This document shows positions 20,993-60,980 of a DNA stretch of 64,000 nt, piece after piece. The notes under the pieces are model-generated. The model was not told the origin of the DNA, made no database searches, and saw nothing but the letters and a program-made list of their open reading frames with translations. The stretch comes from Dipteris shenzhenensis (taxonomy: Eukaryota): NCBI GenBank assembly GCA_047967505.1, contig CM106538.1; one strand, given 5' to 3'. How positions within the stretch are numbered: the stretch's first letter is position 1; each line of letters starts with the position of its first letter. A program made the position numbers and the translations under genes.

Positions 20993-23675
20993 ATATGCTC
21001 TTGAGTCTTGTATCTAGGTCCTAGGCTTTCACTGAGTTCAATTTGGAAGGTGCATTGCACCTTGGTCTTGTATCTCCATTTTCAAGTGAGCCTAGATAAG
21101 AGGGGGGCCGTCTTGGCCCCTCAATCATATTGCAATTTCCAATGATGTCACTTTGTGTTTAAGCTATATAAGTCTTAACTCCACCTTAATTGCAATCTCT
21201 TAAGTTCAAGAATATGTGTTTCGCAACTCGCAATCATTTCATTCAAACGCCTCTGCAAAATCCGTTGTATGAATTGACAGAAAGCACCGAGTAGTTTATA
21301 ACCCCACCATTGCATGGGGGCTTCTAACTGAGGGGAAGCCACCGATTCCCATCACAAATCCAAGTAGATGGCACACATACGCGAAATCATTGTATGATGC
21401 TCTGGCTCAAACCCCACTTGATACGTCTTCCATCCCCAAGCCACCACTTGCACTCTGTTTACCACAAATTTTCCCCCACTTCGAGCACTACCACCATTGT
21501 CCCGATACACAAGTCAGGAGACCCCATGGATGCAAGGAATTACCGCACGCTCATGATTGGCCACACACTCGCCAAGATCTATGGATCAATGCTAGAGAGA
21601 GAGATCAATAACTTCACAGAGACACATGGGCAACAAACCTTAGGACAAGCTGGGTTCAGGAGACAACACTCTACTCTAGATCACATCTTCACTCTACAGG
21701 CCATCACTGAGGAGGCAAGATCGAGGTCCAATAAAGTCTACACTTGTTTTTTTGACTTTCGGAAGGCCTTTGATACTATCCCACGGGCTCGCATGATCGA
21801 GAGGCTTCAAGAGATGCAGATCCCTAGAGTCATGATATGGGGTGTGATGAGCTTATATGAGACAGTCAGAGGCAGAGTACACACCCCAGGAGGTCTATGA
21901 GATTGGGTTGAGAGTACGATTGGAGTGAAGCACGGATGCCCCCTCTCACCGACACTTTTTGGACTCTATATCAATGAGATCACTACCTTCATTGATATTT
22001 TAGGAGGTAAGGGATCATTGCTCGCTGATCTGATGGTACGGATACTACTATGGCTGATGACATAGTCTGCATATCCTCCTTCGCGGCAGGTCTCCACAAA
22101 CATCTAGAGGAACTAGAGGTGTTTTGCAGGGAGAGGGACCTGACAATCAACCTTGGCAAGACCAAGGTTATGATTTTCACTGCCTCACAGGCAACGCTTC
22201 ATCAACATAGTTTCACCTACCGATGTGAGCCCGTAGAGATTGTGCAGTCCTGCACATACCTCAAAGCAGTTTTCTCAAGCCCAGTCTTCACGATCCACGC
22301 AACCACAGCACGACTCACACGTGGTCAAGGAGCTCTAGCTCGACTAGAGCGACAATGCTTCAAGCACATTTCCAAGACCCCCATACGAACGGATGGAGCA
22401 CTCTTCTGGGGAGGTGACCTCTCAGCGACAGACTGAAAGAGATTTGAGAGATCGCGGGTGATTATGGATTCCTGGATGATCCAAAGTAAGCCCATCAGAT
22501 TATACAAGCAGAGTTACCCATGACACCTCTCTAGATTGATGCTATCTTTCAGACAATGACATATATTCACAGGGTTTGGGCTCTACCTAGCTGGAGATTG
22601 CCGAGATTGGCACTAGAGTCATCACGACGACTTGCCTAGATGGTTTGATAGCCAAGGGGTCCAAATGGATCAACTCCCGCCCTTTTAATACAGTCTGGAT
22701 GCCCCGTCCTCCCTGATCCCACGAGATGAAATCAACCGTACATATGGTTAGATCTATGACAGCTTGGCACGCACTTGGGGGGGGACCAAGAGTTCCCCAC
22801 CAAGATCCAATTCTATCATAACGATTTTCGAGTATCAAAGGATGAACTGATCATGAGATCCTTGTACCTAGAGGATAGATGCGTCTCACATGCACTGGGT
22901 AAACAAGCTTTGCATACTAGGAGAGGTGGAGACAAAGGAGCACTTTCTATGCATATGTCTGGCATATAATGAGATTCGAGGGCAGTACCATTGCCTATAC
23001 CAAAAATTTGGAACTCTCTCTCGCCTGATCCATTTCCAAGACCAGGTCTGTGTCGGTCTTTATCTGATGGAGATGCGACGACATAGAGAGACTCTTCTGA
23101 GACACATTAGATAGCCTATGCCGAACGTATTACCTGAGCCAGAGACGAATGCAGCCCAGCGACGGGTCACAGATTTCTATGCCTTTGAGTCAGCCCCGAG
23201 ACACAGCAGAGTGGAGGAGGAGGAGATAGATGATATGCGAGCAAAGTGGACTAGTGGGAGGAGACGGCAGGGAGTGGTGGAGCAGAGAGTTGCTGGACCA
23301 CGCACCTTGAAGGTCCAACCTATCACTGCCTTTCTTCGATGTGAACGCCCAAGTCAAGGGGCCACTCTTGACATGGTGCGCAGAATACATAAATCTCGGA
23401 GACCACCTTCCCCCCGCCACTGCGTGAAACGACACGGCAAATGCAGCTCCGAGATATCCTCGCATCTCATAGGAGAGCCAACATGGCACCTGAATATGCT
23501 TTCTAAAGTCTCTAACCTACCTATGTGTACTAGTTCTAAGTTATGTTTTTCTTTGAGGTTTCTTAGTACTCTACAAGGGTCTTAGTGAACCCCTTGCTTC
23601 AGCCCACTACGGCTTGTATGGGTCAGTCTGAGATTGTACTTTGTCTCATAGGCCCATGAGGCCTTCCGAAGACGT

Positions 23676-33908: not shown

Positions 33909-36900
33909 TGTTAGAAATGTCACTGCCCCACTTGTGAACCCCCGATTTGAGGGGACAAGGGGGCAGGAGACTATAGGGGATGGGGGGCTGAGAGCACCTT
34001 GCTGTAAGAAGGCAGCACCCTGCGTGGAACACTGCGCCAGCATCACGGGCCCATGCGGGGGCATCTACAGCAGCCATCTTGGCCCTTCTGGGGATCGGTT
34101 TCTACGGACTGGAACCGACTGACAAGTTGGCCAGTTCTAGGGGCTGGCTGCCCAACTATATAAACCCCCTCCCCCCCACACATCTTTTCATCACTTGCAC
34201 TGACCAGCTTGCACCGGCAAGTGCGCAGGGCGAGGAGTTGACTCACAGTTTGATACAGCATCTCCTTGCTGTTTTGTATGCTCACCTCTTGAGCTTTTGT
34301 CAGCCCACTGTTGTGGAATAATATATCTGAGTTTTGCTATCTTTCTCTCCCCTCCTCTTTGAGTGTTGTTTGAGCTGCCATCCGGAGTGTGAGGAGTGAG
34401 TGATTCTATACTCTACTTCCAACATGGTATCAAAGCAAGGTTTCCAGCTCTAGAACAGAGTTCCTGAGCAAGAAGGCGACTCCAATCAACACTCAGGTTT
34501 GCTGCGTGGTCAAGTTCTCTACTGCAAATTCATTTTTCAGTTTGTTGTTCGCTATTACAGCAAGGATGGAGGACAAGGATTCAATTGTTGCCTCTTCAGC
34601 CCCTTCTCTTCCTTCCTCCTCCAAATTTCTCTCATTCACCATCCCGAACTTTGGAGAGTCAGGGAAACTAGATGGGTCGAACTACCCAATCTGGAAGGTG
34701 AAAATCCGGCGTCATTTAGTGGCTCGGAAGTTGTGGAAACTGACAACGGGCATGGAGGCAAAGCCCGAAGATATGCTGGACAGCAAAGGGAAGATTCTCA
34801 TTCCAGTAGATGGAGAAGAGCTTGAAAATTGGGAAGACATAGATGCCCACTCCCTAGCATTAATCATAGGAGCCACGGCGGACTGTTCTTCCGCACATCC
34901 AGATGGCCGAGACGTCTGTAGAGGCATGGGCTATTCTGAAGGATCTGTATGAAACAAACAACACATCTCGTATCTTGCTTCTTCAACATCAACTGTACAA
35001 ATCTGGATATGAATGGGGGGGACAATGTTCATGACCATCTGACAATAGTCAAGGTGGTAAGGGACCGGCTCGCGGCAGATGGTCAAAAGGTAGACTCGAG
35101 TCATCTAGCATTGCTAACGTTACACAAGCTACCTCGCAGTTTCAAGAGTTTCGTGACTACCGCCACTGTAGGACAGAGAACCAAGCCTCTCACCTTCAAG
35201 GAACTTGGCCCTTTACTATTGCAGGAAGAGGCTCGTGAAAAGCTATTTACTCAATCCGACGAGAAGGCTCTCGTGGCAAGGGACAAGCCCGGCAAGGGTA
35301 AGTTCAAAGACTCCAACAACAACAAGACCGAGGATGCAGAGAAAAAGAGGCAGATGAAATGCTTCTATTGTGAGAAGCTTGGTCATTATGCTAAGGAGTG
35401 CCGCAAGAAGAAGGCGGACCTTAAGCGAAAGAAGGAGTCCAAGTCCAAAGAGGAGCCAAAGACCAAATCGGCAAACGTCACAACCGGCGCTCTCTTCATC
35501 ATCACTGAGTACTGCTCAGCCTACGTAGTCAGCGAAGGAGAGGAAGGTTGGGTACATGGACGAGAAGGCTCTCGTGGCAAGGGACAAGCCCGGCAAGGGT
35601 AAGTTCAAAGACTCCAAAAACAACAACAAGACCGAGGATGCAGAGAAAAAGAGGCAGATGAAGTGCTTCTATTGTGAGAAGCTTGGTCATTCTACTAGGG
35701 AGGGCTGCAAGAAGGCGGCGGACCTTAAGCGAAAGGAGGAGTTCGAGTCCAAAGAGGAGCCAAAGACTGAATCGACAAACATCACGACCGGCGCTCTCTT
35801 CATCATCACTGAGTATTACTCAGCCTATGCAGTCAGTGAAGGAAAGGAAGGTTGGTACGTGGACAGTGGAGCTTCAAAACACATGTCCAACAAGGAGTGG
35901 TTCAAATCCATGGAAGGTACGCATCCCGATTCCAAGGTCATTGTGGGGGATAACCGGACATGCCTTGTGAAGGGTGTTGGTAGTATTCCATTCATCACGA
36001 CTGCAGGAAACGAGGAGCTGATTTCTGGTGTACTGTATGTACCGAACTTGTGCAAGAACCTTTTGTCTGTCAGGCAGATGGACAAGCACAATATGTCGGT
36101 CTTATTCGACAACGACATAGTCATTGTCACATTCAAGGCAAATGGAAAGGTGGTGGCTCAAGAAGTCGAGGAGCATGGGCTGTATCAGCTCAATGCTCTA
36201 TTGGTGCACGGGGACCATGGCAGATCCAAATTGTGGCATGAGTGGTTCGGTCACGTCAATTATGGCACTCTCGCTGAGATGCAGAAGTCAAAGATGGTGC
36301 ATGGACTTCCACCAATTGTGTAGGCAATGATCGTGTTTACATGGCTTGCTTGGAGGGCAAGCAACACATGGACAAGTTCCCACAGGAAGCCTCATCACGG
36401 GCCAAGAAGCCGCTCGAGTTGGTTCATGCCCAATGTCAACAAATTCATTCGCAGGTTCGAGTATTCTATTTTATTCGTGGATGATTTCAGTCGCATGACA
36501 TGGGTATGAAGTCTCAGGCTTATGAGAAATTCAAAGACTGGAAGGCCCAGGTAGAGAAGGAGAGCGAGGGGGTAATCAAAGCCTTCCGCACAGACATAGG
36601 GGGAGAGTTCACTTCTACCGCGTTTTTGTAGGAAGCACGGGATCAAGAGACATCTCACTACAACTCGCACATCTCAGCAAAATGGAGTTGCTGAGAGGAA
36701 GCACAAAACCATCACAGAGACAAGTTTGACCATGTTGCGAGGGAGGAATCTCTCAAAAGCTTACTGGGGTAAGACGTGAACACTGCCGTTCACATCCTCA
36801 ACAAAACCAAGACCAAGGTTGTTGATGGCAATACACCATATGAAGCTTACTATGGTAAAAAGCCCACGATATCTCATTTACGAGTTTTCGGTTCTAATGC

Positions 36901-39490
36901 ATTTGTTCATGTGCATAAAGATGAGAGGACGAAGCTTGATTTCCATAGCCGAAGATGTATCTTTGTGGGATACAGTGAAGAATCCAAGGCCTATCACCTT
37001 TTTGACTCGAAAAAGAAGAAGATCCTTATCAACAAGTACGTGATCTTTGAGGAGTCAAAGCCACAGCCTGCAGAAGAGGTTCCTGAACTTCCGTCATTAC
37101 CCCCACTCAAGGTCACCATCCAAGAGGTGGAGACGGCTCAAGACCCCAAGGAGGAGGAGGAGAAGCATACTGTTCTAGAACCTGCTCCCAAGGCCGACTC
37201 TAGCAAAGGCACCTCCATCAGAGAAGAAGCTACCTCAGCGGTATTTGAAGACTTTAGCAGACTCACAAATCACGGACATTCCCGAGAACAATTCCGGTCC
37301 CTGGACTGCGACGGTCTCAATGCAACATGAAGACTCCCTCCATGAACTACGATATGGTGGGTCATCTTGAGAAGCCCCGTTCCTTCCAAGAAGCGAAGGA
37401 TATTCTAGACTGCAGGAAACCATGCAGGCAGAGATGGATGTCATTTTGAAAAATGACACCTGGTTTAGTGCCCAAACCAACGAAGTTGAAGGTCATTGGC
37501 ACTAAGTGGGTGTACAAGCTTAAGTTCAAGTCAGATGGGAGCTTGGACAAGTACAAAGTGAGATTGGTGGTGAAAGGCTATGCACGGTCCGAAGGACTTG
37601 ACTTGACTTCGACGAGACCTTCACCCCCACAACTAGGATGGTGACCATTCAGATAGTCATTGCCTTGGCTGCTCATCACGGTTGGCCTATCTTTCATATG
37701 GACGTCAAGTCTGCATTTTTGAATGGAACCCTGGAGGAGGAGGTATCTGTGGACAGTGGCACAGCCACCAGGATTTTAGATTCCAGGATCCCCATAAAAA
37801 GTTTGCAAACTGAAGAAGGCCTTATACGAGCTGAAACAAGCCCCCAGAGCTTGGAACCAGCGGATAGATGTTTTCTTCAGAAGATTGGACTTCAGCAAAG
37901 AGGCAAACCTTTATCTCAACACAGAGAGCTCAGAGGGATTTGCGGCTGGTATTAATTCTATATGTGGATGACCTCATCATTACAGGGGATTGTACGAAGA
38001 AGATTGCTCAGGTCAAGAGACTTCTCATGGAGGAGTTCAAGATGACTAACTTAGGCATACTTCACTACTTTCTTGGGATTGAAGTGAAGCAGGGAAAGAG
38101 CTGTATCTTTACTTCACACGAGAAATATTACAGGGAACTACTCAAATGCTTTTAGATGGAAAATTGCAAAGTTGCACACTCTCCCATGGAAACTGGTCTG
38201 AGGCTAAGTGTGCGTGATCCATCAGAGCTGGTTGATTCATCACTATATCGACACATGGTGGGGAGTTTGCTTTACCTCACCAATACCAGACCGGATATTT
38301 CCTACGCAGTTGGATTGCTCTGTCAGTTCTCCGCCACACCCAAAAAGGCCCATTGGGACGAGTACCTGCACCTACGGCATCACTTAAAAGAGAGGCATTG
38401 AGTTGGGAGGTTCTGCAATAGTGATTGGGCAGGTGATATTGATACCCGGAGATCGACCTCTGGATACCTTTTCTTACTCTCATCAAGAGCTGTCATGGCT
38501 GAGTAAGAAACAACCTATTTTCGCCCTTTCATCTACAAAGAGGAAGTACAGGGCTGCTTGTACAGCGGGATGCGAAGCATTGTGGCTCAGGTGGATCTTG
38601 GAGGACATGAATGTGGCCCAAGAAGATGCGACGGTGGTTATGTGCGACAACCACGGTTGCATAGCGATAGCCAACAACCTCGAGTTTCATGCACAGATGA
38701 AGCACATCGAGGTCCACTACCACTTTGTTCAAGAACTCATCAACAAAGAAGTCATAGAGTTGATGTACTGCCCGACAGACAGACAACATCTCCGATGTCT
38801 TCACGAAGGCGCTTCCCAGGGAGCAGATGAAACACCTCATTCAACGCATGGGGATCGGTCCACAGTTTTGTCATTGAGAGGGGGTGTTAGAAGTGTCACT
38901 GCCCCACCTGTGAGCCCCCGATTTGAGGGGACAAGGGGGCAGGAGACTATAGGGGATGGGGGGGCTGAGAGCACCTTGCTGTAAGAAGGCAGCACCCTAC
39001 GTGAAACACTGCGCCAGTATCACGGGCCCATGCGGGGGCATCTACAGCACATGAGCATCAGCCAGCGGCAGCCCAAAAGGCCCTGCATATGTGGCCTTAT
39101 ATAGGCCAAAGGGTTGGCCCAGAAACTGACCAGAAGGCAGCCATCTTGGCCCTTCTGGGGGTCGGTTTCTATGGATTGGAACTGACTGAAAAGCCGGCCA
39201 GTTCTAGGGGCTGGCTGCCCACCTATATAAACCCCCTCCCCCCCACACTTCTCTTCATCACTTGCACTGACCAGCCTTGCACCGGCAAGCGCGCAGGGAG
39301 AGGAGTTGACTCACAGTTTGGTACAGCATCTCCTTGCTGTTTTGTATGCTCACCTCTTGAGCTTTTGTCAGCCCATTGTTGTGGAAGAATATATCTGAGT
39401 TTTGCTATCTTTCTCTCCCTTGCTCTTTGAGTGTTGTTTGAGCTGTGATCGGGAGTCCGAGGAGTGAGTGATACTATCCTCTACTTTCCA
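33909..39490 (+). mobile_element. Ty1/Copia element E, full-length but pseudogenised; LTRs 33909-34424 and 38885-39490
   Basis: PBS TGGTATCAAAGC at 34425-34436, PPT GAGAGGGGG. Gag, CCHC, protease WYVDSGASKHM, integrase, RT (LYVDDL) and RNase H in Copia order. No matching TSD. Confidence 0.93.
35258..35862 (+). repeat. ~301-bp tandem duplication of the gag zinc knuckle to protease start in Copia E
   Basis: DEKALVARDKPGKGKFKDS...CFYCEKLGH occurs twice. GAC microhomology at the junction. Confidence 0.9.
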
Positions 39491-44056: not shown

Positions 44057-46010
44057 ATCAAAAGGTAGTCCAAAATCTCTTCATTCAAGCTACAACTGCT
44101 TGTGAAGTCTAAACATTTTCATTTTAGTCTCTCCCCAATGAGCATCTAAATCTAAATCTAGAACAAAGCATCTTGCAACAAGAAGCATCGAGTATCCACC
44201 CATTACTACCCATCCATTACATAGGACCCCTTGCAATGAGATGGTTCCTCTTTATAACCACCATAAATCTCCATCATATGATTCCTCTTTGTTGCCTCCT
44301 TGTTTGAGTTTAAAATGTTCTTGGTGAAGCCTTTATTATGTTTTTAACTAGCTTATACTCCATAATACCATAAGAATGCTATCAAGAATATGCATTCCGA
44401 GAGTTTCAACCACCAACATAATGTAGGTATCAGTGCACTCCCTACTTGATACAACTCAATTTACTACTATAGTTCTCAAACCAATCATACCATATTTAAA
44501 ACCACCAAATATAGCCATAGTATGGCTTTTGAACTTTTTAGTGAATCTTCTTCAGTTACCCACCAATTTAGTGAAAGGACCTAGCAAGTTCAGTTGGATC
44601 CTAGCCATTCCAACCATGACGATGTTCATGTTACTTAATGACAAGCAAATGCGATACATGCTAAATAAAGGAGCCCCAAGAGACACAAGGTTTGCTGAGT
44701 TGGGAAATGAAGGGTTGCCCTGTCCATTTCTCTTCTATACAGTTTAGGCCTTTCAACACCGACCCCATTTGTCATAAATAGAAACTCCTGTATGATCACT
44801 GCTTACAGCATACTTTGGCGGCAAGATAAATGCAGTCTGAAGGCCAGCCAGCTGTGATACAAAAGCTGATCCAACAATACAAGAGGTTTCAGCGTTGACT
44901 GTTTATCACGAACCAAGGAATGTGCCTCTCCTTCACAGCCAACAACATAATACCACTGAGAAAAACTTATTGCTACTCATAGCAGCTCTAACAAATTTGC
45001 CTCGTAAACACATGGAAGAACAGGTTATCAGACACTCTGTTGAAATACAAAGGCATGCTTGTACAGTTCCAACGTCAGCTGAAAGCAACATTTCTTCAGG
45101 TTCTAGAGTTCCAGGCTACATGGATGGACAAAAGACCTGCTGCAAATTCGTTTGTGTCTTTATTAATTATTACTAGATAGTTGGGGAATAAATTTCACAT
45201 CTCTCTCATATTGTGCAGAGGAAATTGGCCCACCCATCAGATTGCAGCACCTTGTGATTGTCACAACGCTGATGAACCGGACCCCCAACGCCCTTTTCTT
45301 GGTTAAGTGTAAAAGAGCAAACCCAATACGTAGATCTCGGACTGATATCAGTGTATTTTTCAGGCAATAAAAAAACATTTTCAACTATTTCTTGAAGATG
45401 ATGACGCCCATCATACTAGTGATCATCAATGTTGCTTTTAGGTAATTTGCAGGTTCAACTTTTCTAAACCTTCTCTGTTTTTTGCAAAAAGAATTTAAAA
45501 AAAGCGTTTTATCTTGCCATGAACTATCATCAACCTTGAGAGTTCCTCTTCAAAAAAAGACCACAGCTACTCTTGCAGTTAGATCCAATTATGACGGTGA
45601 CACTTTCGAGGTTGCTGATCCGAAGTGTCACTAGGTTTTGAGTACAGTTTGCGGTGGTCAACATGATAGGTAACAGTTCTAAGCTCCTGTTTGTATGGCC
45701 ACAGCCTGTCATCGACATTGTTTGTCTTCTGTATTCAATCTGAATGTCCCATTGCCCTAATAGACTACAATGCTGCTTCATTAGAAGTTACATCACGGGC
45801 AAGTTCCAAATAGGAGGACAACAGGGCGATACAATGATGCGATAAATGGAATACAAGTGACTAGAAAGGTAAAGGGTATAAAGTATATATGTTCAAGATT
45901 GTTTTGGTCTAACATTCTGACGGTTCGATCTAGATTCTACACGTACGACGCTTAGCAGGTCCGACAACGTAAAAACTCAAAGATTCTAAGAGGAAAAAAG
46001 GTATAGGTAC

Positions 46011-46122
46011 CTCGCACCAACATCCCCAAGACCATGCAGCCAAACGACAGTGGCCTTATGCTCGCCTTTGGGCGGAATTGCATGCGTCTTTCCGAATTGC
46101 AGCTTTTTCCGAGGTTGGAAGC
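46011..46122 (-). CDS. APT1/lysophospholipase-like hydrolase exon 2 (FGKTHAIPPKGEHKATVVWLHGLGDVG)
   Basis: Contains the family N-terminal motif HGLGD. Acceptor TGCAG|, donor AG|GTAC; 112 bp. Confidence 0.93.
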
Positions 46123-46209
46123 CTGCAGGAGCAACAATGAAGAGCCATGAAGTGAAGGAGGCTGGTAAGAAGCGATGGGAAAAGAAGGGGACGAGAAGGA
46201 GAAGCGCAC

Positions 46210-46285
46210 TCATGTTGGGAGGAGCAGCAGATGAACTGATATCGGGAGGGAGACTGGCGAGATCGGTGAGCTCGGTGGAATCCAT
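46210..46285 (-). CDS. Acyl-protein thioesterase/carboxylesterase-like gene, coding exon 1 (MDSTEL...PPNM); a further in-frame ATG lies at 46414
   Basis: ATG at 46285. Donor A|GTGCGC at 46209, followed by an 87-bp GT-AG intron. The phase joins exon 2 to give NM-S-FQPRKKLQFGKTH. Confidence 0.65.
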
Positions 46286-46859
46286 TGGGTGGGGAAGAAA
46301 GGATTGGGAGTGGAGGAGACGAAGGGGAAAGAGGGTGAAGCTATGGTGATGAAAAGAAAAAGAAGAGAGGGTGAGGCTTGCAAAAGGGGAAAGCCCAAAT
46401 GCTCCTGCACTCATTTTGAGACAACCATTTGCTTCATTCAATTTTTTCTACTTCTTTTAATTACATGCCCCTATTCTCCTCAAACTCTTTCATTTGCACA
46501 ACATTTATTTTCTCTCACTTCAATTTCTTTACATTAGGTGCACCTTTTAGGTGTCTCATTCGCCCTTTCCCTTCCTTTATGGGATCTTGGAGTTGCGTTC
46601 TCAATGCTATATAATTCTATTTAAAAATGTGTTCAACATCAAAAAGTGGACTCCAAAGAATTCAGAACAGCAATTCTAGCCCCTAATTAGTTGATTATGT
46701 AACACCAAGTGATTGTAGAACAACAGTCGTAGCCCCTGGTTGGTGAATTGAAGGGTTTGCATTTATTTTATGACTGAGGGGATCATATGATGCGAGTAAT
46801 TCCATATTAAAGAACTATTCATTATTTTTAACCAAGGTTCAAGAATTTGCTAAAAAGCC

Positions 46860-48365: not shown

Positions 48366-48545
48366 TACCTCGATCGAGGTTTATGACCTGCATCAGGCAT
48401 AGAATACCTCGATTGAGGTATATGACCGTGGGGCATAGAGTACCTCGATCGAGGGTTATGACGTGCGGCATTGAATACCTCGATCAAGGTATATGACCTA
48501 GGCATAACATACCTCGATCGAGGTTTATGACCACGATCGAGGTAT
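48366..48545. repeat. Left subterminal array of palindrome TACCTCGATCGAGGTA (about 6 copies)
   Basis: Direct reading; 30-40 bp spacing. Confidence 0.92.
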
Positions 48546-48790: not shown

Positions 48791-51774
48791 ATGGGTTCTC
48801 AAAGCCGTAGAGCTAGTAGACGTGAAAGATGTAGGAACCCCCCCCCCAAATCTCATTGACGAGGAGCGCAAGCGGAAGGCTCGTGAGCGCAAGAGAGCCT
48901 CTAGAGCTAGAGCTCGCACTGCAACCACCGATCCACCTCCACCTCTACATCCCACCTCCAACTCCACCTCCACCCCCACCCCCACCCCCACCTCCATTGT
49001 CCCCCCATCCTCATCTGCTCCCCTACCTCTAGCCTCCGCCCTTCCCCTAGCCACCTACATTCTGGCCTCCACCTCTACCTCTTCCCCCTCCACCCTCCCC
49101 CCTCCCCCTCCCCCTCCCCCCCTTCCCCTTGGCGCCTCCCTTCCCCTCTCCACCCTACCATCTCCCATTGATCCCCTTGCCACACCTTGCAGCAGCAGTG
49201 TTGCTTCACGACGTGACTTGCCGAAGTCCACTATCTGTCGTCGTACTAGCAAGACTGTGTAGTCTTTTTTTAGTGACCTCACGCCAGCTTCGCAGTCTGC
49301 TCTTCTCACGTCCCTGATTGATCACCCTGACTTGGTAGAGTGTAGGAGGCTTGCTGGTCTTGGTGCACGTAGAGATAGGGTTGTATGTAGCAAGGTCCTT
49401 AGCAGTGTTCGATGTTCCTATGCTTCTATTAAGCATAGGAACTCCAGTGATGCCTTGGCAGCATGTCATGCTATTGTGGCTGCCATTAGTAGACCTCATA
49501 TGATAGGCCATGTGCATACCGCTTCATGTCTTCTTCGGGTTACACCACGCACATTGCGAGCAGGCATGATTAGGAGGCAGAGTCTAGAGGATAGTGAGAC
49601 TGATGCTCTTTGGGCTTCGAGTGGTCGTGCACCTCGTAGTGATCGATTGTTGGATGATTCCACTAGGTCCTTCATACAACAGGTTTGGGAGGATTGCACC
49701 GCGCACATTGCGAGCAGGCATGATTAGGAGGCAGAGTCTAGAGGATAGTGAGACTGATGCTCTTTGGGCTTCGAGTGGTCGTGCATCTCGCAGTGATCGA
49801 TTGTTGGATGATTCCACTATGTCCTTCATACAACAGTTTTGGGAGGAGCATTGCAGAGCATCCCCGGTGTTCAAGAAGGCATTGCAAAAGAGGGTGTCAC
49901 GCGGTGTGTACATTGAGCATGGTGCATGTTTTTTGGAGTGTACCCAAACTGAGTTGTACACTCAATTTGTAGAGGCACACCCAGAGTTCAGGATTGGGTA
50001 GAGGTCATTTGAGCGATGCAGGCCATGGTTTGTGCGATGCTCTCAGGAGCGTGACACATGCTGTTGTCGCTACCATGTGGATTTTGGATTGATGTATGAC
50101 GTATTCCGTTCCCTTGATGGTCATAGGGGAGTGGTTCCTACTAGCCCTCGTGACTTCATTCATTCCATATTGTGTACACGAGATGGTGATGCTTTATTCC
50201 ACTCCCTTGATTGTGTGGAAGGTAGGTGTACTTTGTGTGGTGACTTTGCTAGAGTGCCACGAGTTGCACTAGATACTTGTGATGTGCACATGGTTCGTTG
50301 GCAGCAGTATGAGTACAGTACCTTGACATTAGATGGTGGTGCACAATCGAGGAGGTTGCAGCTTGTGGGGAAGGAGACACCACGTGTTGTATTCATTGAC
50401 AGTTTTCGAGGGAAGCTATACCACTACATACGCCACTCACACACTGCGAAGTGGGAGGATCGTCAATTCCGTGCATGTTTGAGGACATTTCCTATAGGGG
50501 TGGTTGTCTCAGTGGTGGACTTTGTGGAGAATTATACCTTTGCACCACAGCATGAGATCCAATCGGAGTATTATTTCTCCGAACAGGTGACGTGTGATTG
50601 AGTTATTGGTTTTTTTATGGCCTCATTATATTGAATTATTTCAATAGTCATATTTTTTTTCAATGCCATATTGCAGGTTGCTATATTTGTGCACATTAGC
50701 TATCGTCATGCATAGGCTCATGTGGATGGCATTGATAGCACCATGGACTCACGCATCATTGTGCAAGAGTATCACTTCTACATTAGTGATGATCGATCGC
50801 ATGATGCCCATTTTGTGCAGCATTGCTTCACTTTGCATGATAGTTTCTTGAGGGATCATGGTGTCACATGGCAGCGGCACTGGATCTGGTCAGACGGCTA
50901 TGGTGGTTAGTTCAAATCTGCTAGACAGTTTTATTGGTTTTGCAGATGGCACCGTGAGACAGGCATTCCGATCACATGGAGCTACTTCAAGACAGGGCAC
51001 GGTAAGGGAGGTGCGGTGGTGCAGCCAGCACTTATCCACTAGTGCTATCTCCTCATTTCAGTCGCGTGACGATAGGGTGGTGAGCCGGTATTTTTGGTGC
51101 GTGGACATTGGGAGTCTTGATTGGTCTAGGCCTTTTGATTGTCATTCAGTGTCTGGCACTCCTGATTTCCATTCCATCAGGAGCATAGGTGAGTCTCACC
51201 CCATGGACGGTTTGCATGTTTTTGCTCTGCATGCATTGATGATGATTGGGGAGGGTGCTCCATGATACCATGGGCCGATCCATGGGCACGGCGAGTGCTT
51301 TCTCCCTTCCAGCCTTGGGAGGAGGTACATGATGATCAGGATGCAGGATCCAGTTCCTCTAGAGATTATGACCAGCTTATAGATATGTTGCGTATTGGTG
51401 ATATCTTCGCGGTTATTGCTTCGGAGGGCAATGAGGAGGGTGTGGATTATTACTTGTTGCGATGCTCTATGGTGAAGAGTGTGCTGAATGAGGATACAGT
51501 GGATGGGCATGGGATGCACTTCAATGCTCATAGCATGATTGTAGGTGGCCACTATTTTCAGCAGATAGAGAGGCGTGGTCGCTATATTGAGTTCCAGGAG
51601 TACATGGCGGATCAGGAGGCATACATGTATTCTCATCTTGTTGTTGCGATCAAGATTACTTTGAGTCGTGTTTGCACTCGCAAGGCGACATCCACTCCAC
51701 GATGGCGCCTTGCAGTGGCGGATCATGAGAGCATACTTGCAACTATTGGCATGAGATCTGATCCTGAGGATTAG
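48791..51774 (+). pseudogene. Sola2-like DDD transposase, intron 50587-50676, disabled
   Basis: Motifs TCCCRYH, DFVENY...EIQSEYY, ISDDRSHD, WSDGYGG*FK, GHGKG and CFCSAC. Several TAG stops, a 154-bp duplication at 49543-49850, and an apparent deletion just after GHGKG. TATA box near 48696. Confidence 0.78.
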
Positions 51775-52089: not shown

Positions 52090-54645
52090 AAACGTGACTA
52101 AGAAAATTTGCGCACGTACTAATGAAATACGCGTGTGGACTTATCTGTTGGTCCCTACTAGCACGACTACGTATGAAAAATGGTGCACATACTAACGAAA
52201 TATGCATGTGGACTTATCTGTTGGGGATGAAACTTCGCATGGCTCTTAGGCCACCCTAGACATACATCCACACAAGATTTGGTCTCCAACTAATTTGGTA
52301 TGCGCCACATGGAAGATATAATGCGTACATTTTTACAATCCCTACAAGCATGACTACATATAAAAAATGGTGCACGTACTAACCAAATAGGCATGTGGAC
52401 TTATCTGTTGGGGATTAAACTTTGTACGGCTCTTAGGCTACCCTAGACGTACATCCATGCAAGATTTGGTCTCCAACGATTTGGTATACGCCACGTGGAA
52501 GGTATAATGCGTACATTTTTACAATCCCTACTAGCATGACTACGTATGAAAAATGGCACACATACTAACGAAATATGCATGTGGAATTATCTGTTGGGGA
52601 TTAAACTTTGCATGGCTCTTAGGCTATCCTAGACGTACATCCACGCAAGATTTGGTCTCCAACTGATTTGGTATGTGCCACGTGGAAGGTATAATGCGTA
52701 TATTTTTACAATCCCTACTAGCACGACTACGTATGAAAAATGGCGCACGTACTAATGAAATACGCATGTGGACTTATCTGTTGGGGATTAAACTTTGCAC
52801 GGCTCTTAGGCTACCCTAGACGTACATCCACACAAGATTTGGTCTCCAACTGATTTGGTATGCGCCACGTGGAAGGTATAATGTGTACATTTTTACAATC
52901 CCTACTAGCACGACTACGTATGAAAAATGGCGCACGTACTAACGAAATACACATGTGGACTTATCTGTTGGGGATGAAACTTTGCACGGCTCTTAGGCCA
53001 CCCTAGACATACATCCACGCAAGATTTAGTCTCCAATTGATTTGGTATGCGCCACGTGGAAGGTATAATGCATACATTTTTACAATCCCTACTAGCACGA
53101 CTACGTATGAAAAATGGTGCATGTACTAACCAAATAGGCATGTGGACTTATCTGTTGGGGATTAAACTTTGCACAGCTCTTATGCTACCCTAGACGTACA
53201 TCCACGCAAGATTTGGTCTCCAACTGATTTGGTATGTGCCACATGGAAGGTATAATGCGTACATTTTTACAATCCCTATTAGCACGACTACGTATGAAAA
53301 ATGGCACACATACTAACGAAATACGCATGTGGACTTATCTGTTGGGGATTAAACTTTGCATGGCTCTTAGGCTACCCTAGACATACATCCACGCAAGATT
53401 TGGTATGCGCCACGTGGAAGGTATAATGCGTACATTTTTACAATCCCTACTAGCACGACTACGTAAGAAAAATGGCACACGTACTAACGAAATAGGCATG
53501 TGGACTTATCTGTTGGGGATTAAACTTTGCACGGCTCTTAGGCTACCCTAGATGTACATCCACGGAAGATCTGGTCTCCAACTGATTTGGTATGTGCCAT
53601 GTGGAAGGTATAATGCGTACATTTTTACAATCCCTACTAGCATGACTACGTATGAAAAATGGTGCACGTACTAACCAAATAGGCATGTGGACTTATCTAT
53701 TGGCGATTAAACTTTGCACGGCTCTTAGGCTACCCTAGACGTACATCCACGCAAAATTTGGTCTCCAACAGATTTGGTATGCACCACATGGAAGATATAA
53801 TGCGTACATTTTTACAATCCCTACTAGCACGACTACGTATGAAAAATGGCGCACGTACTAACGAAATATGAATGTGGACTTATCTATTGGGGATTAAACT
53901 TTGCATGGCTCTTAGGCTGCCCTAGACGTACATCCACGCAAGATTTGGTCTCCAACTGATTTGGTATGCACCACGTGGAAGGTATAATGCGTAGATTTTT
54001 ACAAATCCCTACTAGCACGACTAAACCCTAAACCCTAAAAAACCCTAAATCCTCAACCCTAAAAAACCTTAAACCCTAAACCCTAAATCCGAAACCCTGT
54101 TGGGGATGAAACTTTGCACGGCTCTTAGGCTACCCTAGACGTACATCCATGTACGATTTGGTCTCCAACTGATTTAGTATGCGCCACGTGGAAGGTATAA
54201 TGCATACATTTTTACAATCCCTACTAGCACGACTAAACCCTAAACAACCCTAAACCCTGTTGGGGATGAAACTTTGCACGGCTCTTAGGCTACCCTAGAC
54301 GTATATCCACGCAAGATTTGGTCTCCAACTAATTTGGAATGTGCCACGTGGAAGGTATAATGCGTACATTTTTGCAAGCACTCCCTACTCGTGACTGCGT
54401 ATGAAAAATGGCGCACGTACTAACCAAATACGCATGTGGACTTATCTGTTGGGGATTAAACTTTGCACAGCTCTTAGGCTACCCTAGACGTACATCCATG
54501 CAAGATTTGGCCTCCAACTGATTTGGTATGCGCCACGTGGAAGGTATAATGCATACATCCACGCAAGATTTGGGTCTCCAACTGATTTCGTATGTGCCAT
54601 GTGGAAGGTATAATCCCTACTAGTGACTACGTATGAAAAATGGCA
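52090..54645. repeat. Tandem satellite, 187-bp unit, about 13-14 copies
   Basis: CCCTAC anchor recurs at 52153, 52340, 52526, 52713, 52900, 53087, 53274, 53445, 53632, 53819, 54007 and 54219. Confidence 0.95.
54021..54258. repeat. Interstitial plant telomere-like repeats (CCCTAAA)n at 54021-54098 and 54233-54258
   Basis: Degenerate AAACCCT units embedded in two satellite monomers. Confidence 0.85.
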
Positions 54646-55137
54646 AGCATTGATATATACGAAATTCAATATGATATTCAAAATGATAAAGTTCATAGCA
54701 CGAGAGAGCTCTAGAAAGAGAGAGATAGAGAGAGAGAGAGACCTTATACTTGAACACCTTTTCAATGCTTAATGTTTACAATTACGACACACGGCATTAT
54801 TTTTAAAATACCTTATGTATTAGATGTGTGAATTGAGATATCTAAAATTCAAAATCATACTCTTAATTTTAAATATGCACGTGGGGATGAAACGTCACAC
54901 GGCTCTTAGGTTTAGTGTAATAATTGCAAGCATTGATATATACAAAATTGAATATGATATTCAAAATGATAAAGTTCATAGCAAGAGAGAGAGAGAAAGG
55001 AAGACCTTATACTTGAACACTTTTTCATGCTTAATGTTTACAATTACTTCACATGGCATTATTTTTAAAATACCTTATGTATTAGATGTGTGAATTGAGA
55101 TATTTGAAATTCAAAATCATACTCCTAATTTTAAATG
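54643..55137. repeat. ~283-bp period duplication following the satellite
   Basis: GCAAGCATTGATATATAC...AAATCATACTC occurs at 54643 and 54926. Confidence 0.85.
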
Positions 55138-55327
55138 TTTATGTTAGATTTGAACAAACTATAAACTGAGATAAACAAAGTAAGAAGAACATCATGAAAG
55201 TACAAAAATGCTCATACATCATAAAAGTAAGAATAATATCATGAAAGTACCAAAATGAATGTGTACATCATCATCATCATCGTGCAGAAGTGCATCCCTA
55301 AACAAGATATGTGTGACGCCTAAACAA

Positions 55328-58300
55328 TCATCCTGAATCAGAATCTGATAACTCCACATATGATCCTCTAGTCATCCTCTGACGTGGCTCCTGTATGACC
55401 CGCTGCCCAACCGTCCGTTGTGTGCCCTCAAGCAAAGCCGGATCAGATGGGCCAGCCTCATCTCTTGCATGAGATGGGCCAGCCTCATCCTGATGAAGAG
55501 GAGGGCATGCTGCATGAGCCACTGCTGCCATCTCTGCCTCCCTCGCCTCCTCTATGTATGCGCATCTCAGCTCCCAAAGTCGTGCATTTGCAAATACTCG
55601 TGCCTCAAATCCAGCGCGAGTAATCGTCTCTACATGTAGAAGACGCTAGTCTCGGCCCCGCCCAAGCTACTGCTCCACCCACTGCTACAATGATATCTGA
55701 AGCTCTGCCTCTCGCTCAATACGGCGTGCCTCCTCTGCTCGTGCCTCGTCACCTGGTATGAAATCACCATATGAAAAGCGTCACGGAACACACGCTGCAA
55801 CCACTAACGTATCAGCACCCTCCTGCTGCAGCAAAGCTCTTTGTGCCTCCTCCTTGTAGTGCTCTGTCAAGACCACACGGGCAAATGGATCAATGGCCTG
55901 ACGATGACCAGGATACAGATCATCCATGCCAAGTCCTCTGTATGTGGCCACATCAATGTCAGCAAAGCATACAGGGCACACTGATCGTGCCACCATGTGG
56001 CGGGTCATGCAATGGAGATGTGCGATGTGGCCGCACCCTAGTCCAAACCACCCTACGGTGTCAAACTCCTCGTGGCAAAGGATGCAAGTGGCAGTAGGAA
56101 GCTGGTGCATCTATGGGTGTCCTAGTTGGCACATCTATAGGAGGAGCGGGGTATAGGGCCACGCTGGGGTCGATCCTATGGTGAGATGGATCACGACTAA
56201 TATGTCTCAACTGCAAAATATAGTGCTCCGCTCGATGGTACGCTATACGTGTCCGAATCCTCTGCTCCTCCAAATCTGCCTCCAACAGTCGTACACGAGA
56301 CTCCATATCCTATCGCAATAGATGTGCCTGCAATGCAAACATGTCGCGTACATGGTGAGAATTAACTAAAAAACTTCAGTTCAAAACACGCAACAAAAAA
56401 ATAAACTAAAATAATCAAAATAACTAACCTCATTCCTAGACGCGGCCAACAATGCCTCCAACTCTGCAATCCGTGCATCTCGAGTCTCCAACTCATGCTG
56501 AGGCAGGCTCCATAGATGTGGGAGGTGGGGGAGGTGGAATCAAAAGTGATCTCGATAGGGTAGAGACCATGTCGTGCAAGGATGATGCCACTGAATGAAC
56601 ATCCCCCCTAATCCATCCTCCAACAGCTCGCAATGCTGGTGTAGGGATAGTGTGCAGCTTTGGTGTCTCGCGTTGATGTCGAACACTTGCAGTCTGATGC
56701 TCTTGATGCCCCATCCTACCATGTCCTGCTCCTCTAGACGGGTACTAAGGTAGTCTATCCGATGACCAAGCACAAACTCGGTGTATAGCTGCATGGCAAA
56801 TGACCTAGCTATCTGATGGTTGTGAGGCAATCGACCACCATTCACAGCGAGATATCTCGGATAAATGTGTGCTACTATGACGGGGTGCCTACAACGTAAA
56901 ATATGAAAGGGCAGCCCTGATCGTGGTTACATCGCCTCAGTGTGACCATCCCAAAACATATCCTCTAAGGCCTGCCTGTGAGGTGACTCACGCTCAAGCA
57001 ACTCTCGAATGGCTCTCCAATCCAAGCCATGACTAGTGATCTCTGCCTCAGCTTGTGCCTGAAAGGTATTCACAATGTCCTCAATTGTGTCCAATCGACC
57101 CAGAGCATCAATGACTGAATCTAGACTCGCAACCAAGTGAGGGGGTGCGCTAGCATCCTGCAGTGCCCTCATCTCAGCTCTCAAAATCACTATCTGCATA
57201 TGAATAGTGGTGCCAGAACTTGTGCGCTGGCTAGCGCATGCACCAAAAAAACACATGGAAATCAATATTCTATTTGGGTAATGAAAATAATATTCTATTC
57301 AATATGACTTATGATCTATTTACGTAATGAAAACTATTTGTATGTACTCCTTGATGAGGTAGGATGTCGTTGGGATCATCCTATGCACCTACCGGTAGAT
57401 GGGCCAAATATGTGGCTATGCCTACAACAGTGCTATGTTGCAAATTCAATTCGTATTTACAATTATTTACAACTTGTTTACTTTAGAAAGTCGGTTTCTT
57501 CAAGCTCATTCTCCTTGTCTATACTACCCACCCTTGCTTTAATTAATAGCAAATAGCTTTTGTTCTAGATGCTCCCTCCATTTTTCGAGGCTCTAGACTA
57601 CTATGGGCTCTACTAGCATGTCAAAGTATGTAGTAGAGGTGTATTTTTGAAAGAGAGATGTAAAGATACTGAGTGATAGAAAGAAAATGTTATGTACAAT
57701 ACATTAAAATGGACAACAAGGAATAGATGCTAACTTGAAAGATATAACCCAAGGCAAGACCTGCATACTAGAATATTCCACATGAAGGTGGACGAATGCA
57801 CCTCTCAATAATTGCAAGTGGAAGTCAAATTGCACCTCTAAACATATGCCAAACTAAAGTAGAATAGCATCTTGAAATGTATAGAATATATAGGAAATGA
57901 CAATATTTATAGGATAGAGAAAGGTTATGGTCATTGAGATAACCCTAGTTATACTGCTTGACTTGGAGCATCTGTTGAATGATTGGTTGGCATGACTGGC
58001 TCCTAGCTAGTTGGGAATAGCTAGCCCTAAAAAACTTTTTGACTAGGCCTTAACTAGATCATCTTGCTCTAGCTTGTTAACTCAGCCTACTTACTCTACC
58101 TAAATTATGAAACAACTCTTAACCAACTATATAATCTATAATATTCCACATAAAGATAGATAAACGCACACCCCAATAATTTCTTTTTTTTAATAGATGA
58201 TTTCTAAAAATAAAATTTAAACGTTATATTTAATTCAAAACTTCACTAATTTAAAAAATAACATGCAAACTACTTTAATCTCTTTTTTTTTAAATAGATG

Positions 58301-60222
58301 ATTTTAAAAAACAAAATATATACTTTTTGACATTTAAATAAAAACTTCACTAACTTAAATAACATAAAAGCTACCTTAGACTCTTATTTTCTTTTTTTTC
58401 TAAAGATGATTTTTAAAACTAAAATTTAAATGTATTTTTATTTAAATAAAAATAGCACTAATTTGAAAAATAACATGAAAACTACTTTAATCTCTCTTTT
58501 TTTAATAGATGATTTTAAAAAATAAAATATATACATTTTCACATTTTAAATAAAAAATTATGTAATTAAAAAAAATAATTTAAAAAAACTTTAAAATGCA
58601 TTTGAAATTTTGAAATATTTTATAATTAAATTAGATATTCCTATAAACTAAAATAATATCAAAGCTACTTTAAACTCTTATTTTCTTTTTTTTAATAGAT
58701 GATTTCTAAAAATAAAATTTAAACGTTATATTTAATTCAAAACTTCACTAATTTAAAAAATAACATGCAAACTACTTTAATCTCTTTTTTTTTTAATAGA
58801 TGAATTTTAAAAACAAAATATATACTTTTTGACATTTAAATAAAAACTTCATTAACTTAAATAACATAAAAGCTACCTTAAACTCTTATTTTCTTTTTTT
58901 TAAAAAAGATGATTTTTAAAACTAAAATTTAAATATTTTTTATTTAAATAAAAATAGCACTAATTTGAAAAATAATATAAAAACTACTTTAATCTCTCTT
59001 TTTTTAAATAGATGATTTTAAAAAACAAAATATATACATTTCACATTTTAAATAAAACATTACGTAATTAAAAAAAATAATTTGAAAAAACTTTAAAATG
59101 CATTTGAAATTTTGAAATATTTTATAATTAAATTATTTTAAACTCTTATTTTCTTTTTTTTAATAGATGATTTCTAAAAACAAAATTTAAACGTTATATT
59201 TAATTCAAAACTTCACTAATTTAAAAAATAACATGCAAACTACTTTAATCTCTTTTTTTTTTAATAGATGATTTTAAAAAATAAAATATATACTTTTGAC
59301 ATTTAAATAAAAACTTCACTAACTTAAATAACATAAAAGCTACCTTAAACTCTTATTTTCTTTTTTTTTAAAAGATGATTTTTAAAACTAAAATTTAAGC
59401 ATTTTTTTATTTAAATAAAAATAGCACTAATTTGAAAAATAACATAAAAACTACTTTAATCTTTCTTTTTTTAAATAGATGATTTTAAAAAATAAAATAT
59501 ATACATATTTACATTTTAAATAAGAAATTATGTAATAAAGAAAAATTATTTAAAAAAACTTTAAAATGCATTTGAAATTTTGAAATATTTTATAATTAAA
59601 TTACATATTCCTATAAACTAAAATAATATAAAAGCTACTTTAAACTCTTATTTTCTTTTTTTAATAGATGATTTCTAAAAATAAAATTTAAACATTATAT
59701 TTAATTCAAAACTTCAATAATTTAAAAAATAACATAAAAACTACTTTAATCTCTTTTTTTTTAATAGATGATTAAAAAAAATAAATTATATACTTTTTGA
59801 GATTTAAATAAAAACTTCACTAACTTAAATAACTTAAATAACATAAAAGCTACCTTAAACTCTTATTTTCTTTTTTTTTAAAAGATGATTTTTAAAAATA
59901 AAATTTAAACGTTTTTTTATTTAAATAAAAATAGCACTAATTTAAAAAATAACTTTAATCTCTTTTTTTTTAAATAGATGATTTTAAAAAACAAAATATA
60001 TACATTTTCACATTTTAAATAAAAAATTACGTAATTCAAAAAATAATTTAAAAAAACTTTAAAATAGATTTGAAATTTAGAAATATTTTATAATTAAATT
60101 AGATATTCCTATAAACTAAAATTTAAATAAATTTTTGAAAAAAAAAAAGCTACATAAAAAAAACCTTACTTGGAATCTCCCGCTCCGTCCATCTCCATCG
60201 TTGTCCATCGGTCGTTCTCCAT
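55328..60222 (-). pseudogene. Transposon-borne accessory gene: unknown N-terminal domain, coiled coil and RING-H2 finger; spliced
   Basis: CILC-x12-CGHIAHLHC-x10-CPVC at about 55965-56090. Intron 56328-56428 (GT-AG). Donor at 60169. ORFs 56927-57265/56540-56845 and 55781-56110/55328-55531 are pairwise in frame across stops. Confidence 0.68.
58180..60140. repeat. AT-rich higher-order tandem repeat (~500-bp units built from ~100-bp subunits, about 4 copies)
   Basis: TAATAGATGATTTCTAAAAA recurs near 58190, 58692, 59160 and 59661. Subunits begin T(n)AATAGATGATT. Confidence 0.9.
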
Positions 60223-60277
60223 CGCTACCGCAATTCTGTCGAGCTCCCGCAAATCTGTCGATTTCGATGATGAGGAG

Positions 60278-60980
60278 CTCGATCGAGGTATGAAGAATGA
60301 GGGGGGTCCCTCTCTTTATATACGAAAATTTAGGGTTTCACTACCTCGATCGAGGTATTTCACATGCCACATACATATCGATCCATCATACCTCGATTGA
60401 GGTATAGACATGCCACGATACCTCGATTAAGGTATTTTACATGCCACATATACATCGCTCCATCATACCTCGATACCTCGATCGAGGTATTCGACATGCC
60501 CCATACACATCGGTCCATCTACCTCGATCGAGGTATGGACGTGCCACGATACCTCGATTAAGGTATGTCAGCTGCCAGCCGGATGCCACATACCTCGATT
60601 GCGGTATCGGACATGCGGCCAAGTCATCGGTCCAGCATACCAGGATCGAGGTTCCTAGACTTGCCATGTTACCTCGATCGAGGTATGTCAACTGCCCTGT
60701 CGGATGGCACATACCTCGATCGAGGTATTTGACACGATCGAAGACATCTATCCACGATACCTCGATCGAGGTATGTGGACTTGCCACAATACCTCGATCG
60801 AGGTATAGTTGGCTTACCACGATACCTCGAACGAGGTATAGGTGGCATGCCACGAGACCTCGATCGAGGTATAGGCTCGGTTCGGTGAAAAAAAGTCCAG
60901 GACCTCGATCGAGGTATTGGCTTGGCTTGGTTGTCCTCGTGTGTGAGTTTCATTGGAGATAATTCCTCGATCGAGGTATT
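60278..60980. repeat. Right subterminal array of palindrome TACCTCGATCGAGGTA (roughly 18-20 copies)
   Basis: Direct reading. Variants are mostly CpG transitions. Confidence 0.92.
60314..60338 (-). promoter_or_regulatory. Putative promoter of the accessory gene: telo-box AAACCCTA plus TATATAAA
   Basis: The minus strand reads AAACCCTA (60338-60331) then TATATAAAG (60322-60314), upstream of the first exon. Confidence 0.45.

Follow-up and report, generated by a model that had tools for sequence, protein, structure and literature searches.

A pseudogenised RING-H2 gene in Dipteris shenzhenensis, probably the second of two genes in a decayed DNA transposon

RING fingers encoded by transposable elements have been described in RAG1 and in the Chapaev group of transposases, where the finger is fused to the enzyme; in the accessible text of Kapitonov and Koonin (PMC4411706), no other transposable element was known to carry one as of 2015, and the RING of RAG1 is reported to have ubiquitin-ligase activity. 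Here, we describe a RING-H2 gene copy on the minus strand (60222-55328) of a 64,000-nucleotide stretch of Dipteris shenzhenensis DNA (assembly GCA_047967505.1, contig CM106538.1; this whole stretch is called the window), where it lies in a transposon-like unit next to a transposase-like gene. The copy is a pseudogene, and we hold it moderately probable that it is the second of two genes in a DNA transposon of cut-and-paste type, about 13 kb long and now decayed.

As in the window, the RING of the RAG1/Chapaev (Transib/Chapaev) lineage is encoded by a cut-and-paste DNA transposon; however, in the part of that account available (PMC4411706), it is fused to the transposase, after the Chapa zinc domain, and is found in animals, whereas in the window, part of a plant-type genome, the RING-H2 has a gene of its own on the strand opposite the transposase. 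Neither by Pfam in the transposase of the window and its relatives, nor as a RING pattern in 18 loci encoding further relatives, did we find a RING in the transposase itself, which sets the locus apart from Chapaev and RAG1.

Also comparable are MuDR mudrB, the VANDAL accessory proteins, PIF/Harbinger ORF1 and CACTA TnpA, each of them, as in the window, the product of a second gene beside a transposase. The two genes of MuDR are read convergently from the two arms, and we know of no RING in the mudrB, VANDAL, PIF/Harbinger ORF1 or CACTA TnpA proteins. The window gene has no sequence relation to these accessory proteins of plant terminal-inverted-repeat (TIR) transposons, Pfam finding the RING alone. 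For plant TIR transposons, the accessible part of a 2025 atlas (PMC12973397) describes accessory proteins with roles in transposase binding or against silencing, and its supplementary table places zf-RING_2 in ‘accessory_protein’ open reading frames (ORFs) from 1 of 1846 MULE clusters and from 1 of 337 hAT clusters; other RING rows may exist in the table. These RING-bearing ORFs sit, as far as that table is available, in other superfamilies than the window element, and RING is absent from the main text of the atlas in its available version (‘ring’ occurs 0 times; PMC12973397). A search of the literature on transposon-borne RING or E3 proteins found nothing closer, and the accessible portions of the literature on Sola and DDE transposons made no mention of RING. 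Set beside these systems, the window gene would be classed as the second gene of a DNA transposon, either accessory or captured. In plant transposons, second genes are few, anti-silencing and transposase-binding factors being examples, and each is informative on the conflict between element and host.

A RING-H2 finger behind an unrecognised N-terminal domain

The sequence-only reading of this locus had announced a complete C3H2C3 finger, and the pattern holds with all of its ligands (CILC...CGHIAHLHC...CPVC, 56086-55967, minus strand). Across all 64 kb, in six-frame translation, a RING-H2 regular expression gave this single match; 200 block-wise shuffles produced 0. On the 109-codon open stretch 56110-55781, the Pfam family zf-RING_2 (PF13639) scored 28.4 bits (E 1.9e-6), a narrow pass over the curated cut-off of 27.3 bits, and zf-RING_5 scored 26.7 bits, under its cut-off of 27.9. 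Among solved chains, the closest are those of RING-H2 E3 ligases, namely synoviolin/HRD1 (E 9e-5), RNF38 and RLIM, in a range of about 1e-4 to 1e-3. With these cellular enzymes, and with plant ATL-type ligases, the window RING has in common the pattern and spacing of the zinc ligands, a hydrophobic residue after the first Cys and a Pro after the seventh; the likeness amounts to about 26 bits over the finger alone, and the N-terminal domain of the window gene is not common to them. No candidate relative of the RING stretch was found among proteins of 59-191 residues (longer proteins were not searched).

RING-H2 fingers contact the E2 enzyme through a hydrophobic residue after Cys1, a Trp four residues past ligand 6 and a Pro after Cys7. 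In alignments to the solved chains, the putative E2-contact residues of the window RING include the Ile and the Pro, with a His at the usual place of the Trp. Judged by these comparisons, the finger belongs by sequence to the RING-H2 fold family and is not a chance pattern, with E3 function predicted.

Ahead of the finger, an unrecognised domain had been proposed from the letters alone, and this proposal found support in a search of 1.84 billion representative proteins. The query, P0001, covered the window frame from 57199 to 56381 with breaks read through as X; four matches were returned, two of them believable, P0002 (E 8.4e-11) and P0003 (E 9.5e-10). The other two, P0004 and P0005, were rejected as spurious, being repeat-rich, bacterial-looking sequences of 820-1677 residues in which the same 40-50 residues were matched six times over. 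The P0002 and P0003 clusters have 2 and 3 members, all unnamed proteins encoded by 0.8-3.2-kb contigs of ENA and Logan assemblies, and Pfam detects no family in either protein. Together with P0006, these relatives are 59% identical among themselves and keep open frames of 208-261 residues; aligned to the window by tblastn, they show 33-43% identity over 105-156 residues, spanning an in-frame TAA. The core common to the window and its relatives reads ...C.HP...AH.Y.RY.A..GG.P...Q....F..QL..EF.LG...DY. Within the window, HIYPRYLAVNGG... falls in the open stretch 56926-56540, and MESRVRLLEADLEEQRIR, further downstream, occupies 56306-56253.

The family appears to be small. P0001 had no match among proteins of 479-2000 residues, a metagenome scan with the alignment of the N-terminal domain gave 69 pattern matches of which 0 were confirmed, and the ESM Atlas gave no usable match for P0006. 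A structural model of the domain (P0003, 6 sequences) reached a mean predicted local distance difference test (pLDDT) score of 51.3, and a fold search with it returned generic helical bundles, the best at Z 8.3, which is within noise for helical models. From the two believable matches and their conserved core, we conclude that the N-terminal domain is a real, rare and lineage-specific family. The partial second copy of the domain that had been suggested at 57347-57421 did not hold up: 5 of 9 residues are in common (HIWPIYR.V against HIYPRYLAV), the single comparison gives E 0.18, and the stretch does not align to P0003, so that the resemblance is no better than chance.

Decay of the gene copy

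Read as a gene, the locus runs from a TATA-like box through a first ATG and several introns to a final stop (Table 1), and the unit looks like a whole gene and not a fragment. Introns 1 and 3 have readable GT..AG borders, the junction between exons 3 and 4 is in phase, and intron 2, between exons 2 and 3, is A+T-rich. From RNA runs X15 and X16, 0 reads aligned, a count that carries no weight for or against these putative junctions. Because both borders of intron 3 are in phase 0, ...LLAASRNE would be joined directly to DMESRVRLLEADLEEQ.... Splice sites had earlier been described as intact, and what stands of that description is the readable GT..AG signals, a working gene being contradicted by the broken coding sequence. 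Similarly, the promoter that had been placed in the right arm can be traced to a readable TATA-like box in the right palindrome cluster, and remains putative.

The path along which the gene is read, the only one that fits the relatives, contains seven premature in-frame stops (TAG 57418, TAG 57391, TAA 56929, TGA 55783, and TAG 55687, 55669 and 55648) and three frameshifts, near 56745, 56505 and 56101. The tblastn alignments of P0002, P0003 and P0006 cross the in-frame TAA at 56929-56927, and a 42-nucleotide (nt) GT..AG intron across this stop was ruled out, the relatives aligning straight through. Past ...GHRIDY, the alignment carries on in a different frame with its colinearity kept, 56744-56493 corresponding to P0003 residues 169-235 (E 9e-4) and P0006 residues 171-236 (E 1e-4), and it takes further frame changes near 56505 and 56101 to arrive at the coiled-coil-like stretch and then the RING.

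The frameshifts were compared with contigs from two public DNA runs, X1 and X2, which come from two organisms, at an identity threshold of 85%; word depth in these contigs does not equal copy number. At 56101, an additional 11 nt are present in all of the contig depth (22.3 of 22.3 in X1, 400.6 of 400.6 in X2), marking an 11-nt deletion in the window. At 56504/5, X2 carries an additional 32 nt and X1 shows matching loose ends, and at 56732/3 X2 carries an additional 4 nt where X1 has no cover. By codon-phase arithmetic, the insertions of 4, 32 and 11 nt each have precisely the length needed to connect the two window frames on either side.

These breaks leave the RING gene copy in the window a pseudogene, unable to make protein, and the practical consequence for annotation is to record it as a pseudogene within a decayed transposon, not a gene. 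The differences of X2 from the window are skewed, with 54 T>C and 33 A>G changes as opposed to 18 C>T and 14 G>A; T and A have accumulated in the window copy, which fits the decay of a methylated, silenced element.

Relation of the RING gene to the transposon-like unit

The gene had been placed inside a transposon by the sequence-only reading, and its position agrees with this: it lies between two clusters of the palindrome TACCTCGATCGAGGTA and is convergent with the transposase-like gene, which the same clusters bracket. Allowing up to 2 mismatches, the palindrome has 22 sites, all of them in the two clusters and none elsewhere in the window, with 0 sites in each of 100 shuffles. Between the clusters follow, in order, the plus-strand transposase-like gene, a 187-bp array, the minus-strand RING gene and an A+T-rich array. 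Since the putative exon 1 and the TATA-like box fall in the right cluster, the gene as modelled starts in an arm of the element.

The RING gene belongs to repeated DNA in two organisms. On the 55.0-57.4 kb interval, 139 of the 17,770 records of run X1 align, 13 of them at 99% identity or more and 66 at 95-99%, and the X2 contigs reach a word depth of about 400. We use the label transposon because a transposase-like gene, bracketing repeat clusters and repeated DNA occur together, and, as both genes lie between the palindrome clusters, the RING gene is most likely the accessory gene of a decayed two-gene DNA transposon, a reading in which we place moderate confidence.

Several observations weigh against this reading. 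The linkage of RING gene and transposase is seen in a single element, and the window contains no sister copy of it. The X1 and X2 contigs cover only 55075-57417 and at both ends run on into unlike sequence, so that the usual arrangement elsewhere may differ from that of the window. Neither the N-terminal domain (best tblastn E 0.25) nor any RING pattern occurs on the 18 contigs, short ones of 1.0-7.3 kb, that encode distant relatives of the transposase, and this would place the acquisition of the gene within this element lineage. We found no terminal inverted repeats or target-site duplication, and no inverted match beyond the palindrome, leaving the ends of the element undefined. P0002 and P0003 stop short of any RING, and the N-terminal domain and the RING are therefore seen joined in this window alone; the ends of the relatives look like read-through into an intron. 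The X2 contig carries an additional 2 nt at 56442 that break a frame kept by the window and X1, and it may itself be defective, with no intact copy among the sequences seen. Lastly, the RING-bearing accessory ORFs of the plant atlas are singletons as far as its supplementary table is available (PMC12973397), which fits sporadic capture as well as a dedicated regulator.

Pack-type capture, in which the element would have picked up a RING-H2 gene of the host, or a chimera made of host fragments, and amplified it passively without its ever serving the transposon, is the strongest of the alternatives, and we regard it as rather unlikely. It draws on the atlas singletons, on the 18 contigs without such a gene and on the free decay of the RING gene in the window. 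It is also in keeping with general knowledge that RING-H2 genes are very numerous in plant genomes and that DNA transposons pick up host fragments. However, the ordinary host homologue that the earlier interpretation had asked to be looked for did not appear in the protein sets searched: the N-terminal domain has no host-like relative among the 1.84 billion representatives, apart from the two unnamed clusters, and none among the proteins of 479-2000 residues, and the RING stretch likewise drew no candidate from proteins of 59-191 residues. Moreover, the unit reads as a whole gene with TATA, ATG, several introns and stop, and relatives of the domain that have diverged to 59% identity still keep their open frames, a hint of selection among copies.

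A further possibility is that a 2.3-kb gene-bearing unit from another family of repeats has become nested in the element, or lies beside the transposase by accident. The X1 and X2 contigs end at about 55075 and about 57417, beyond which they are unlike the window, 57434-58013 has no depth in either run, and no inverted termini link the two arms. Against such nesting, the putative exon 1 and its TATA-like box lie within the right palindrome cluster, non-coding flanks may have diverged past the 85% threshold, and self-comparison shows no repeats or duplications flanking 55075-57417, and we consider it improbable. An intact, working accessory gene in the window copy itself, as the sequence-only reading had implied, could appeal to the readable GT..AG borders and to the RING exon being open for 109 codons, but is practically out of the question, being already refuted by the reading frames, with stops in all three frames of exon 2, one stop within the conserved N-terminal domain, four past the RING and three frameshifts each matched by indels in relatives, such that only a very different and unsupported splicing could rescue it.

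If the RING gene is the second gene of the element, as we favour, its intact ancestor would have encoded a protein of about 550-600 residues, with a short N-terminus, the helical domain, a linker rich in proline, a coiled-coil-like stretch (about 60 residues) encoded on both sides of an intron, the RING-H2 finger and an acidic tail, in this order. In intact copies, the RING-H2 finger would be expected to recruit ubiquitin-charged E2, the coiled coil might pair two chains, and the N-terminal domain might pick the target, be it the transposase of the element or a host protein, so that the gene would act as an accessory factor of the element like other second genes of plant transposons. A more far-reaching proposal is that intact sister copies encode a stand-alone RING-H2 ligase with a new substrate-choosing domain, by which the element would mark its transposase or a silencing or chromatin factor of the host. 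A eukaryotic cut-and-paste transposon would then, for the first time, be seen to have an accessory gene dedicated to E3-ligase activity, in an unclassified DDE-like family that matches no Pfam model and has many copies in at least two organisms. We put this forward tentatively, as unlikely on present evidence. If true, a repeated family with a whole RING-H2 gene and a new domain would be a candidate for a transposon that exploits the host ubiquitin system.

Transposase-like gene and other features of the window

The relic of the neighbouring gene matches P0011 (residues 78-923) over 49173-51771. Its relatives comprise seven matches of 556-942 residues (E 1e-30 to 1e-79), in which the motifs RDTCCCRYHV, DFAENYTF, WSDGC..QFKS and GHGKGEHDGAG are invariant, conserved acidic residues among them. 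Pfam families were absent from P0009-P0015 at E up to 0.1, and the transposase of the window matches no Pfam transposase family either. Metagenome contigs, 18 in all, encode additional relatives whose exons are laid out in the same way. Language-model and structure look-alikes of P0012 are hypothetical proteins of Rotifera, Cnidaria, Mollusca and Arthropoda, the best rows scoring 0.94-0.95 with no family; rows at 0.89, under the 0.9 line, carry DUF7869 and, in a minority, a DDE_Tnp_ISAZ013-like family, and are leads only. In a structural model (15 sequences; mean pLDDT 50.9), the secondary-structure elements flanking the conserved D...D... motifs follow an order compatible, at low confidence, with an RNase H-like core; Foldseek found no match to this model at E up to 0.001, its weak rows including retroviral integrases and IstA, and a profile search of the PDB with the transposase gave one row only (E 2.3). 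A literature search for the motif strings returned no match.

The neighbouring gene appears to be a broken transposase of an unclassified, DDE-like family. To our knowledge, the Sola superfamily likewise lacks a Pfam model.

Two minor observations concern the transposase. Its coding region in the window contains a 154-bp tandem duplication (49543-49847, 2 copies, 96%), which corresponds to residues 204-250 of P0011. On metagenome contigs L001-L012, open frames of about 570-670 codons in its distant relatives are accompanied by the same downstream exons (RFFW..DVNRS.P...IPGTR.LHS and GDVFAVVAP.DN.E.V.YYLMRC), which suggests that the transposase family is widespread among eukaryotes and unmatched in the Pfam scans made.

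Table 1. Positions of the features of the transposon-like unit within the window.
Feature	Position	Strand	Description
Left palindrome cluster	48366..48544		16-bp TACCTCGATCGAGGTA, 6 sites, up to 2 mismatches
Transposase-like gene relic	48792..51774	+	Three frames, in-frame stops
187-bp tandem array	52152..54235		About 10 copies, 90% matches; also scored as 374-bp period
C-terminal tail	55328..55966	-	RING frame; four premature stops; final TGA 55330-55328; acidic/serine-rich end
RING-H2 domain	55967..56086	-	All eight ligands; C-x2-C-x13-C-x-H-x2-H-x2-C-x10-C-x2-C
Exon 4, first part	56103..56309	-	DMESRVRLLEADLEEQRIR..., second half of coiled-coil-like stretch and linker
Intron 3	56310..56428	-	GT..AG, phase 0 on both sides
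Exon 3, last part	56429..56503	-	Frame moved again; PQHELETRDARIAELEALLAASRNE; first half of coiled-coil-like stretch; donor GTTAGT at 56428
Exon 3, middle	56505..56744	-	One frame over; match to P0003 169-235 and P0006 171-236; ends with proline run
Exon 3, first part	56747..57199	-	Helical N-terminal domain, homologous to P0002/P0003/P0006; in-frame TAA 56929-56927
Putative exon 2	57347..57421	-	AxPHIWPIYRxVHRMIPTTSYLIKE; stops in all three frames
Putative intron 1	57422..60169	-	About 2.7 kb, filled by A+T-rich tandem array
Putative exon 1	60170..60222	-	Inferred: ATG, 17 codons and 2 nt (MENDRWTTMEMDGAGDS.); donor GTAAGG at 60169
Right palindrome cluster	60275..60978		16-bp TACCTCGATCGAGGTA, 16 sites
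TATA-like box TATATAAA	60315..60322	-	About 95 nt 5' of first ATG, in right palindrome cluster; putative, read from sequence

The repeats of the unit have further features of their own. Copies of TACCTCGATCGAGGTA are spaced roughly 30-75 bp apart and form a perfect palindrome, a candidate binding-site array for an element-encoded protein, and a GCCAC(A/G) motif beside them has the same orientation in both clusters and is not inverted. Diverged, partial 187-bp units occur again at 54382-54645, and about ten units of a plant-telomere-like repeat, (CCCTAAA)n, lie at 54021-54098, at the end of the 187-bp array and inside the element. The A+T-rich array inside putative intron 1 (58177-60100) has a G+C fraction of 0.16 and nested periods of about 100, 212 and 468 bp. 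The 580 bp of 57434-58013, just 5' of exon 2, lack cover in X1 and X2 even though their flanks are covered, and are possibly a private insertion or rearrangement in the window copy. A motif of about 45 bp (AATATTCCACAT.AAG...) occurs at about 57770 and about 58140.

Outside the unit, just to the left of the element, an open stretch on the minus strand (45986-46447, ending ATVVWLHGLGD) had no Pfam family at E up to 1e-5; it looks as though an ordinary hydrolase gene of the host might have its first exon here. The window as a whole is repeat-rich and resembles plant nuclear DNA. Fragments of long-terminal-repeat (LTR) retrotransposon pol genes extend over much of 8-38 kb, with pol and gag pieces at 8411-10061, 13092-15863, 18500-19582, 21328-21900 and 34404-37330 that include integrase, RVT_1, RVT_2, copia-type gag and SH3-like domains.

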